64,000 nucleotides of DNA, taken from NCBI RefSeq assembly GCF_044647545.1, contig NZ_CP172818.1; one strand, written 5' to 3'. The notes under the pieces were generated by a model. It saw nothing but the letters and a program-made list of their open reading frames with translations. It was not told where the DNA came from and did not search any database. Made by a program: the position numbers and the translations under genes. This document shows positions 18,725 through 21,822 of this stretch, piece by piece (position 1 is the first letter of the stretch; every line of letters begins with the position of its first letter). Origin of the DNA: Escherichia coli. Lineage in GTDB: Bacteria > Pseudomonadota > Gammaproteobacteria > Enterobacterales > Enterobacteriaceae.

Positions 18725-20101
18725 ATGAAAATTATCATTCTGGGTGCCGGCCAGGTTGGCGGCACACTGGCGGAAAACCTGGTTGGCGAGAACAACGATA
18801 TCACTGTTGTCGATACCAACGGTGAGCGTCTGCGGACCTTGCAGGATAAATTTGACCTGCGAGTCGTGCAGGGGCATGGCTCTCATCCACGCGTATTGCG
18901 GGAGGCAGGTGCCGACGACGCCGATATGCTGGTTGCTGTAACCAGTTCAGATGAAACCAATATGGTTGCCTGCCAGGTAGCCTACTCACTTTTCAACACC
19001 CCTAATCGCATCGCTCGTATCCGCTCACCAGACTACGTGCGCGATGCCGATAAGCTATTTCATTCAGATGCTGTACCGATTGATCATCTGATCGCACCAG
19101 AGCAGTTGGTTATCGATAATATTTACCGACTGATTGAGTATCCCGGCGCATTGCAGGTGGTAAACTTCGCTGAGGGTAAAGTCAGCCTGGCTGTGGTTAA
19201 AGCCTATTACGGCGGCCCGCTGATTGGTAATGCACTTTCGACCATGCGCGAACATATGCCACATATCGATACTCGTGTGGCAGCAATTTTCCGCCATGAT
19301 CGCCCCATTCGTCCGCAAGGTTCGACCATTGTTGAAGCTGGTGATGAAGTGTTCTTTATTGCCGCTTCACAGCATATCCGCGCGGTGATGAGTGAATTAC
19401 AGCGACTGGAAAAACCGTATAAGCGGATCATGCTGGTTGGTGGTGGTAATATCGGTGCAGGGCTGGCGCGTCGTCTGGAAAAAGATTACAGCGTCAAACT
19501 CATCGAACGTAATCAGCAGCGCGCTGCCGAACTGGCGGAAAAGTTGCAGAATACGATCGTCTTTTTTGGTGATGCGTCGGATCAAGAACTGCTGGCCGAA
19601 GAACATATCGATCAAGTTGATCTGTTTATTGCTGTCACCAACGATGACGAAGCCAATATCATGTCCGCCATGCTTGCCAAACGTATGGGTGCGAAAAAGG
19701 TGATGGTATTGATCCAGCGTCGCGCTTATGTGGATCTGGTTCAGGGGAGCGTGATCGATATTGCGATTTCACCGCAACAAGCAACTATTTCTGCGTTGCT
19801 TAGCCATGTGCGAAAAGCTGATATTGTTGGTGTTTCCTCACTGCGCCGCGGCGTAGCAGAAGCTATTGAAGCCGTTGCTCACGGTGATGAAAGCACCTCA
19901 CGCGTTGTCGGCAGAGTCATTGATGAAATCAAGCTACCGCCAGGAACGATTATTGGAGCGGTGGTACGTGGAAACGACGTGATGATTGCCAATGACAATC
20001 TGCGCATTGAGCAAGGCGATCACGTAATTATGTTCCTCACAGATAAAAAGTTTATTACCGACGTCGAAAGACTGTTCCAGCCAAGTCCTTTCTTCTTGTA
20101 A
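18725..20101 (+). CDS. trkA: Trk potassium uptake protein TrkA (two NAD-binding domains)
   Basis: 458 aa, two Rossmann GxGxxG repeats ([16 protein letters not shown]). Confidence 0.95.
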
Positions 20102-20230
20102 TTAATAAGGCGTCTAATGACGCCTTATTATTTCCCTTTGATTATCAAGGATTAATTAAATTCATTCCTGGCAGGAAAATGGCTTAACATTTGTTAGACT
20201 TATGGTTGTCGGCTTCATAGGGAGAATAAC

Positions 20231-20641
20231 ATGAGCATTATTAAAGAATTTCGCGAATTTGCGATGCGCGGGAACGTGGTGGATTTGGCGGTGGGTGTCA
20301 TTATCGGTGCGGCATTCGGGAAGATTGTATCTTCACTGGTTGCCGATATCATCATGCCACCTCTGGGCTTATTAATTGGCGGGATCGACTTTAAACAGTT
20401 TGCTGTCACGCTACGCGATGCGCAGGGGGATATCCCTGCTGTTGTGATGCATTACGGTGTCTTCATTCAAAACGTCTTTGATTTTCTGATTGTGGCCTTT
20501 GCCATCTTTATGGCGATTAAGCTAATCAACAAACTGAATCGGAAAAAAGAAGAACCAGCAGCCGCACCTGCACCAACTAAAGAAGAAGTATTACTGACAG
20601 AAATTCGTGATTTGCTGAAAGAGCAGAATAACCGCTCTTAA
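20231..20641 (+). CDS. mscL: large-conductance mechanosensitive channel
   Basis: 136 aa, N-terminus [26 protein letters not shown]. Confidence 0.95.
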
Positions 20642-20856
20642 CAAGCGCCTGAAAGCAGAAGGCCAGTGGTAAAAAAGTGATTTACTTTCTTGCCACTGGC
20701 CTCCCAGTTCCCCCGATTGCCATGTTTTCCTTTTCGCATGTAACTGCCTTTCCCTTTCTTATTTTTCTCTACTCGCTGTCGGAATAAGGGATCATGTAGT
20801 AATGCTTCTATCGCATTATCCTTTATCTGCCCTTTAGTATGCTGATATCGGCTCAT
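20638..20856 (-). CDS. arfA: alternative ribosome-rescue factor A
   Basis: 72 aa basic protein ([25 protein letters not shown]...), convergent with mscL; contains 3' hairpin. Confidence 0.85.
20661..20701. promoter_or_regulatory. stem-loop inside arfA 3' coding region (RNase III site producing non-stop arfA mRNA); likely also mscL terminator
   Basis: 9 bp perfect stem ggccagtgg / ccactggcc with 23 nt loop. Confidence 0.6.
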
Positions 20857-20911
20857 AAAAACTCCAGTTGGTTATTTAACGGCGCGAGTGTAATCCTGCC
20901 AGTGCAAAAAA

Positions 20912-21337
20912 TCAACAGCCACTCTTAACGCCACTCGCTCCTTGTTCAAGAGCTTCAAGAATCGAGCAATAAACACTGCTATGGGCGGTCCCACAACAGG
21001 CATCGTTAAGGCGTTGCAAGGAACGCTGCATACTCTGCAACTCGGCTATCCGTGCTTCGACTTCCTGCAATCTTTCCTGCACAATGCCTTTTGACTCCTG
21101 ACAGGTATGGTGTTCAGGATCGATACGGATCGACAGCAACTCGCGGATCGACTCCAGACTGAAACCAAGTTGTCTGGCATGGCGGATAAATTTCAATCGC
21201 TGGAGATCGCTTTCGGTATACAGGCGAAACCCACCTTCGGTGCGTACTTCATGCTCCATCATCTGCTGCTTTTCGTAATAACGAATCGTGTCGGGCGTAA
21301 CTTCTGCCAGTTTTGCCAACTCACCAATGCGATACAT
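20912..21337 (-). CDS. zntR: MerR-family Zn(II)-responsive transcriptional regulator
   Basis: 141 aa, MerR HTH N-terminus, C-terminal Cys/His metal-binding residues. Confidence 0.9.
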   Translation of the reverse strand: MYRIGELAKLAEVTPDTIRYYEKQQMMEHEVRTEGGFRLYTESDLQRLKFIRHARQLGFSLESIRELLSIRIDPEHHTCQESKGIVQERLQEVEARIAELQSMQRSLQRLNDACCGTAHSSVYCSILEALEQGASGVKSGC

Positions 21338-21347
21338 AAATTATCTC

Positions 21348-21716
21348 TCAGTTGTCATTAATTTTATTCAGAAGCTTATCAGCATATTCGCCACGTAAAA
21401 ATTCAGTGCTCAAACCTGCTTGCCGCAGTTTCAACTCCAGTAAAGACAACTGACGGCTAACCTCTTGATATTGCTGGTCATCCTGACGGATACCTTTGAG
21501 AATATCCAGAAGCTGAATTGCTTCCTTGCGCTGCTCAAGTTCTGGCGGTAAACAACCAGCATTTTTTAACAAGCGATAGCCAGCACGCAGTTCCGGCGGT
21601 ACGTGTGAATCATCATCCAGAATTAATGGCTCACCAATGCCTGGGAGATTATCAAACTCACCTTTAGCTTGTGCTTCAGTAATATGGCGCTCTGCCCACT
21701 GGTCAAGTAACCACAT
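21348..21716 (-). CDS. yhdN: DUF1992 protein YhdN
   Basis: 122 aa ORF, synteny between zntR and rplQ. Confidence 0.8.
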   Translation of the reverse strand: MWLLDQWAERHITEAQAKGEFDNLPGIGEPLILDDDSHVPPELRAGYRLLKNAGCLPPELEQRKEAIQLLDILKGIRQDDQQYQEVSRQLSLLELKLRQAGLSTEFLRGEYADKLLNKINDN

Positions 21717-21781
21717 AAATACTCCAGGGGATGAACAAAAAGAGTACAGCTATTGTAGATAAGTGGGGATACTATGGGTAT

Positions 21782-21809
21782 AAAAAAACCCGCCGGGGCG
21801 GGTTTTTTT
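21782..21809 (-). terminator. intrinsic terminator of the alpha operon (downstream of rplQ)
   Basis: Stem cccgccggggcggg followed by T-run on minus strand, just after rplQ stop. Confidence 0.75.
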
Positions 21810-21822
21810 ACGTTGCTTCAGA

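Follow-up and report, generated by a model that had tools for sequence, protein, structure and literature searches.

The overlapping mscL and arfA 3' ends within the window, a stretch of 64,000 nucleotides of the Escherichia coli chromosome, share an inverted repeat which very probably represents the known autoregulatory stem-loop of arfA, with an mscL-sense counterpart that marks the 3' end of mscL. Regulation on the arfA side is textbook knowledge, and nothing new is added to it here. For the mscL side we propose that the hairpin probably forms the protective end of a transcript terminated by Rho, the protective role and the order of events (Rho termination followed by trimming) being deduced from sequence features and published transcript data.

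Identification of the locus is straightforward. Many RefSeq genomes match positions 20100–21000 with 100% identity, and this segment is found in 5425 of the 5426 complete genomes of E. coli. The gene order trkA (18725–20101, plus strand), mscL (plus), arfA (minus), zntR (20912–21337, minus), yhdN and rplQ is common to the window and the E. coli RefSeq genomes. The arfA product matches the Pfam family ArfA (PF03889) with residues 4–45 (E = 9.2e-26; 89.5 bits against a cutoff of 25.5) and agrees with chain 3 of PDB entry 5H5U in each of its 72 residues. The two genes are arranged tail-to-tail and overlap by 4 nt, the palindrome TTAA at 20638–20641 being common to both stop codons. A preliminary description of the sequence had placed a 72-codon arfA convergent with mscL, and the coordinates given there agree with the open reading frame list and the sequence (Table 1).

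Table 1. Features of the mscL–arfA region in window coordinates, with the strand and the evidence for each.
Feature	Position	Strand	Evidence
mscL open reading frame (large-conductance mechanosensitive channel)	20231–20641	+	Open reading frame list; Pfam MscL, E = 2e-47; RefSeq annotation
arfA open reading frame (alternative ribosome-rescue factor A), 72 codons plus stop	20638–20856	-	Open reading frame list; Pfam; PDB identity; RefSeq annotation
Perfect DNA inverted repeat, 10 bp	20660–20702 (arms 20660–20669 and 20693–20702)		Direct reading; exact-match scan
Predicted arfA-sense RNA hairpin, codons 51–67	20656–20706	-	RNA fold; pairing; frozen synonymous sites; strand specificity of G·U pairs
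U-rich tail UUCUGCUU directly 3' of the Watson-Crick stem in arfA sense, candidate U-tract	20653–20660	-	5/8 T
Codons 1–55 kept on the non-stop mRNA made by RNase III, encoding active ArfA	20692–20856	-	yrdG 5' end; Morra 2023; 5U4I; mass spectrometry
arfA-derived sRNA yrdG (b4846), 54 nt, antisense to the mscL 3' UTR	20638–20691	-	MG1655 annotation 3438431–3438484 (offset 3417793)
mscL 3' UTR (+1 to +64), hairpin pairs within 20660–20702	20642–20705	+	Term-seq; SEnd-seq via Morra 2023 Fig. 2A; fold
C-rich, G-poor untranslated stretch, candidate rut site and Rho termination region	20703–20780	+	Composition; bicyclomycin data

The preliminary description had also reported a perfect 9-bp stem with a spacing of 23 nt at 20661–20701, within arfA. 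This is exact, as GGCCAGTGG (20661–20669) is the reverse complement of CCACTGGCC (20693–20701). The large open loop implied by that spacing did not stand, however, because in the arfA-sense fold the presumed loop is self-complementary and the structure extends to a helix of 22 bp. Its outer part comprises 14 bp (20693–20706 paired with 20656–20669) and is followed by a 1x1 internal loop (20692/20670), an inner helix of 8 bp (20684–20691 paired with 20671–20678) and a loop of 5 nt (20679–20683). Folding of 20650–20710 in both senses, which had been suggested as a check, predicted a stable structure in arfA sense (-32.1 kcal/mol, z = -7.07, with none of 200 shuffled sequences being as stable) and a weaker one in mscL sense (-27.8 kcal/mol, z = -5.39). 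The difference arises because wobble pairs (G·U) on the arfA strand turn into C·A mismatches on the other strand. A 9-bp perfect stem by itself is not rare, given that 7.5 ± 3.3 perfect stems of at least 9 bp with loops of 3–30 nt are expected per window in Markov-1 simulations, but the whole structure is far beyond chance. In arfA sense it ranks third in stability among the local folds of 61 nt when both strands of the 64-kb window are considered (top 0.04%). A near-continuous helix of 22 bp corresponds to about two helical turns, the size of a classical RNase III substrate.

A scan of 20000–21400 against Rfam 15 with E values up to 1 revealed no family over the hairpin and merely sub-threshold matches attributable to chance (e.g. 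MIR408, E = 0.17). Likewise, a consensus terminator scan left the hairpin unflagged on both strands. The rules of that scan demand an uninterrupted stem and a loop of 3–8 nt and are blind to a helix with a 1x1 internal loop, for which reason the hairpin tails were scored by a direct count of T residues per 8 nt.

Eighty loci from different species were retrieved via alignment of ArfA (77–99% identity, all matches belonging to the Enterobacteriaceae). The hairpin is present in the same register in all 80, and the alignment is ungapped. Among the 77 distinct sequences, 96.0% of the cells of the 22-pair structure are standard pairs, a value that none of 500 shuffles equalled and that compares with 42–64% in controls in which the 3' partner was slid. 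Covariation is thin, with 11 of the 22 pairs being invariant and one pair covarying strongly (columns 29–35: CG in 44 sequences, UA in 28, UG in 5); this type of evidence carries little weight, as the outer helix hardly varies within the Enterobacteriaceae. Suppression of synonymous changes and strand asymmetry are more informative than covariation. In codons whose amino acid is conserved, the entropy of third positions amounts to 0.156 bits within the hairpin (codons 51–67) as opposed to 1.10 bits in the rest of arfA (Mann-Whitney p = 1.9e-4). Pairs that form exclusively in arfA sense, i.e. G·U pairs, account for 236 cells and those exclusive to mscL sense for 13; overall pairing in mscL sense reaches 82.8%. 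Based on the frozen synonymous sites and the one-sided wobbles, selection on the stem therefore acts at the level of RNA, and on the arfA strand.

In principle, the inverted repeat might have been kept only by the coding constraint on ArfA, or by chance, and have no function as RNA. Perfect 9-bp stems are expected about seven times per 64 kb, and residues 52–55 are part of mature ArfA. Nevertheless, the likelihood of such an explanation is negligible. Neither constraint nor chance accounts for a fold with a z score of -7 or for third positions that are frozen specifically in the codons of the hairpin, and residues 61–65 (F-F-T-T-G) hardly vary despite being located past the C-terminal end of active ArfA.

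The function of the stem-loop in arfA expression is well documented. As summarized by Abo and Chadani 2014 (PMC3989581), arfA mRNA increases strongly when the stem is destabilized by synonymous mutations or when rnc is disrupted, and the RNase III cut is mapped to the arfA stem. According to the same summary, the C termini determined by mass spectrometry for ArfA with and without the tag match the RNase III cut, truncated arfA mRNA and protein increase in ssrA mutants, and full-length ArfA is unstable owing to its hydrophobic tail. Two staggered cuts in arfA were found again when RNase III cleavage was mapped in vivo across the transcriptome (Altuvia 2018, PMC6212723), and Morra 2023 describes the arfA fragments 166–189 and 190–stop. 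The published mutants with synonymous changes in the stem and the cleavage data (PMC3989581, PMC6212723) also rule out that coding constraint or chance alone maintains the repeat.

The exact cleavage coordinates used here derive from secondary accounts (Abo and Chadani 2014, Morra 2023, Altuvia 2018) and from the MG1655 annotation. In the latter, the 5' end of yrdG (MG1655 3438484) corresponds to window position 20691 and to nucleotide 166 of arfA. The annotation thereby places the cut in the 5' arm between nucleotides 165 and 166 (20692|20691), a site that coincides with the internal loop, with exactly 55 codons remaining; the construct of the structural study 5U4I covers ArfA residues 1–55.

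According to the published work, the course of events is as follows. Codons 51–67 of the arfA transcript fold and both arms of the helix are cut by RNase III. Cleavage of the 5' arm after nucleotide 165 yields a message of 55 codons that lacks a stop codon and releases the 54-nt yrdG RNA. Ribosomes stall at the end of this non-stop mRNA and are normally rescued by tmRNA-SmpB, which tags ArfA for proteolysis and promotes decay of the mRNA, so that active ArfA(1–55) builds up only when trans-translation is saturated or absent. Published work thus supports the preliminary description, in which an RNase III hairpin had been assigned to arfA as the source of a non-stop mRNA that makes ArfA synthesis dependent on failure of tmRNA. 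The wild-type Term-seq tables of MG1655 contain no 3' end in arfA sense, which would agree with a rapid loss of this mRNA. With this type of control, arfA is the textbook gene whose message is made without a stop codon and whose product is seen only once the principal route of ribosome rescue is overwhelmed.

Premature termination may be a second route to such messages, a point that was absent from the preliminary description. The candidate U-tract UUCUGCUU on the 3' side of the arfA-sense stem is interrupted and, in the predicted fold, pairs in part with a 5' GGGAG, and at least five of eight positions of the corresponding tail are T in 65 of 81 sequences. According to Abo and Chadani 2014 (PMC3989581), truncated arfA mRNA of rnc mutants ends just past the repeat, which is read there as premature termination. 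The hairpin together with its U-rich tail may therefore stop some polymerases early and give rise to arfA transcripts that are also devoid of a stop codon.

The K-12 locus, with arfA (yhdL, b4550) and the sRNA gene yrdG (b4846), has the same gene, neighbours, protein, hairpin and cleavage position as the window. It differs by one synonymous exchange in the stem, as position 20662 is G in the window and A in K-12 (Gly65 encoded by GGC and GGU, respectively). In arfA sense this position forms a G-C pair in the window and a G·U pair in K-12, where the mscL-sense RNA has an A·C mismatch instead. Accordingly, the K-12 allele is predicted to fold with -29.4 kcal/mol in arfA sense versus -20.7 kcal/mol in mscL sense.

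With respect to mscL, mapping of 3' ends by Term-seq had been suggested along with the preliminary description, and published data place the mscL end next to the hairpin. Term-seq of MG1655 detected a plus-strand 3' end at 3438498, equivalent to window position 20705, in LB at OD 0.4, in LB at OD 2.0 and in M63 medium. This is 3 nt past the last base pair of the mscL-sense hairpin. It also coincides with the mscL 3' UTR of +1 to +64 defined by SEnd-seq, as cited by Morra 2023. Measured from the mscL stop codon, the distance to the perfect stem is 18 nt and that to the base of the extended helix 15 nt, and in all 80 species the stop codon of the convergent mscL precedes the helix by 3–18 nt (mode 16).

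A stable G+C-rich stem at such a distance from the stop codon, conserved throughout the species compared and followed closely by the steady-state 3' end, is what might be expected of a Rho-independent terminator that releases mscL RNA without any factor. The preliminary description had stated that the hairpin probably terminates mscL. The position of the 3' end bears this out, but an intrinsic mechanism is probably wrong. The mscL-sense hairpin is not followed by a U-tract: its tail, CCCAGUUC, and the equivalent tails in all 81 sequences contain at most three U in 8 nt, and 0/81 reach five of eight. Moreover, the terminator scan passed over the element, it is the arfA strand that profits from the non-Watson-Crick pairs, the K-12 allele folds poorly in mscL sense, and read-through into the downstream region is raised by bicyclomycin (see below). 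Taken together, these points make intrinsic termination of mscL very improbable.

The data obtained with bicyclomycin point to Rho. In the study that also provided the Term-seq ends, DirectRNA-seq with and without the drug located a Rho region with its best position at MG1655 3438536, i.e. window position 20743. The Rho score of 5.84 (p = 3.4e-28) is calculated from coverage windows of 800 nt and places the termination point only roughly. Upstream and downstream coverage were 245 and 73 without the drug and 147 and 256 with bicyclomycin. The untranslated RNA immediately downstream of the hairpin has a composition that befits a rut site, 20703–20780 containing 34.6% C and 11.5% G. The resulting C/G ratio of 3.0 is in the top 0.3% of all 78-nt windows in the 64 kb, and the median downstream ratio across the 81 sequences is 2.67; this C-richness follows from the antisense of ArfA codons for Lys, Gly and Arg and need not have been selected as a rut site.

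Precise 3' ends after a stable stem-loop that has no U-tract, with a rut site immediately downstream, have been described for Rho-dependent transcripts, and in these cases PNPase and RNase II are held off by the stem-loop (Dar and Sorek 2018, NAR 46:6797). Trimming back of Rho-terminated ends was reported by Adams et al. Given the missing U-tract, the bicyclomycin-sensitive read-through and the C-rich downstream sequence, we therefore favour a protective stem-loop of a Rho-terminated mscL mRNA over an intrinsic terminator. In the model that we propose, Rho would load on the C-rich RNA antisense to arfA just downstream of the mscL hairpin and end transcription there. 3'-to-5' exonucleases would then shorten the transcript as far as the hairpin, which would shield the mRNA and set the end at 20705. 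Owing to the overlap, the 3' fragment of arfA is at the same time an antisense RNA in cis to the 3' UTR of mscL.

A different origin of the mscL end is suggested by the convergent arrangement of the two genes. In overlapping bidirectional terminators, as described for hairpins between convergent genes, the hairpin pauses both polymerases, and head-on and trailing collisions release both transcripts. The overlapping ends of mscL and arfA, which are listed as an overlapping convergent pair, indeed surround a hairpin that can fold in either sense, and the mscL 3' UTR end comes, according to its citation in Morra 2023, from the very SEnd-seq study that defined such terminators. By contrast, the symmetry of A-tract and U-tract seen in the canonical elements of the window (trkA, 20103–20130; rplQ, 21781–21810) is missing here, and weak expression of arfA should make collisions rare. 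As collisions do not account for the sensitivity to bicyclomycin either, we regard such a terminator as an unlikely explanation.

It is also conceivable that the end at 20705 and the small RNAs of the locus result mainly from RNase III processing, either of an mscL:arfA duplex or of the mscL-sense hairpin, in the manner of an excludon with mutual control of the two genes. In keeping with this idea, mscL mRNA falls about 2-fold in vivo under the influence of the arfA 3' fragment, and RNase III cleaves the hairpin of the mscL 3' UTR in vitro with the release of a fragment of approximately 25 nt (Morra 2023). In addition, an RNA of 49 nt from the mscL 3' UTR has been reported, and ExcludonFinder lists mscL–arfA among the overlapping convergent pairs. 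The enzyme, however, cuts within helices and not 3 nt past the base of a helix, cleavage in mscL sense refers to the in vitro situation only, and the regulatory effects are modest (1.5- to 3.7-fold). RNase III processing is thus improbable as the main source of the end, although cutting of the mscL-sense hairpin, or head-on collision of RNA polymerases, could contribute to it.

If the Rho-dependent model for mscL applies, the locus may be regarded as a dual-strand device that is conserved across the Enterobacteriaceae. The antisense strand of arfA would supply the entire Rho-dependent 3'-end module of mscL, with the hairpin serving as exonuclease stop and the codons for the Lys-, Gly- and Arg-rich portion of ArfA as C-rich rut site, while the hairpin itself is kept optimal for the arfA strand. 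We consider the chances of this extended proposal to be even. It would imply that termination and mRNA stability of mscL are tied to the sequence of arfA, and possibly to its transcription. A literature search for mscL in combination with bicyclomycin and Rho retrieved nothing relevant. In the literature searched, the dual-strand module is not taken up in any main text and shows only in a supplementary table. The proposal matters for the editing of either gene, as deletion of arfA would remove the 3'-end module of mscL.

Several known systems resemble the locus. The Rho-dependent transcripts of Dar and Sorek 2018 share with mscL a stem-loop before a precise end, the absence of a U-tract, a C-rich downstream region and read-through that is sensitive to bicyclomycin. 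Unlike in those transcripts, stem-loop and rut-like region of mscL are embedded in the codons of a convergent gene, and on the opposite strand both fulfil a second function that is under better selection. On the arfA side, brfA (yqkK) of Bacillus subtilis and the terminator-type arfA genes of other proteobacteria likewise consist of a rescue-factor reading frame of about 72 codons which is broken by a structure before its stop codon, giving rise to a non-stop mRNA and to gating by trans-translation. While brfA relies solely on a Rho-independent terminator, arfA of E. coli is subject to cleavage by RNase III, with premature termination as a probable back-up. Finally, mscL–arfA has in common with excludons and other cis-antisense systems the overlapping convergent 3' ends, the involvement of RNase III and reciprocal effects at the level of mRNA. 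In contrast to excludons, the overlap of mscL and arfA measures only some 50–65 nt, and intramolecular hairpins dominate in place of a long intermolecular duplex.

Within E. coli, the stem of the arfA hairpin is polymorphic at window position 20662 (K-12 3438455), where the window carries G and both K-12 and L003, a single locus of our Enterobacteriaceae comparison, carry A. The exchange is synonymous (Gly65). In the arfA-sense RNA it amounts to a G-C pair with the window G and to a G·U pair with the K-12 A; in the mscL-sense RNA the A creates an A·C mismatch, which costs about 7 kcal/mol on that strand.

Across the 80 arfA loci of this comparison (L003–L082) the hairpin is invariant, yet the sequence 3' of it is not conserved, and the annotated or inferred length of the ArfA reading frame ranges from 68 to about 110 residues. 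Such a variable tail is as expected if it is translated essentially never. One member of the set, L028 (NZ_CACSJJ010000125.1), is a contig of only 383 bp that is assigned to Arthrobacter sp. 18067 but contains a Raoultella-like arfA with the hairpin; this contig is almost certainly a contamination of the Arthrobacter assembly. None of the Rfam 15 families covers this well-studied regulatory hairpin, which lies within window 20644–20719. The top match in this interval, to the plant microRNA precursor model MIR408, had an E-value of 0.17 and was dismissed as a chance match.

Published bicyclomycin data place a region of Rho termination on the arfA strand also, at window 20694, minus strand (MG1655 3438487; Rho score 2.49, p = 1.7e-5), that is, within the 5' arm of the arfA hairpin, a position that is poorly resolved because the score was computed over 800-nt windows. 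Rho may assist in halting transcription on the arfA strand before it enters mscL in antisense orientation.

At the junction of the two convergent genes lies a further, small hairpin whose loop holds the stop codons of both mscL and arfA (TTAA, 20638–20641). It was called terminator-like on the arfA strand by the terminator scan and is also present in the fold of the 101-nt RNA. The annotated coding sequences share these four nucleotides in the window, as they do in MG1655 (3438431–3438434), whereas Morra et al. 2023 classed the E. coli mscL-arfA pair as 'proximal, non-overlapping'.

Hairpin at the mscL-arfA junction and canonical terminators of the window
Feature	Window position	Structure	Evidence
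Small hairpin	20633–20647	5-bp stem; minus strand CGCUU-GUUAA-GAGCG, then GUUAUUCUGC	terminator scan and fold
Canonical terminator 3' of trkA	20103–20130	12-bp stem, T-rich tail	
Canonical terminator 3' of rplQ	21781–21810	AAAAAAACCCGCC-GGGG-CGGGTTTTTTT, symmetric A-tract/U-tract element	

The terminators 3' of trkA and rplQ represent this window's examples of U-tract elements, and it is with both of these that the arfA hairpin contrasts.
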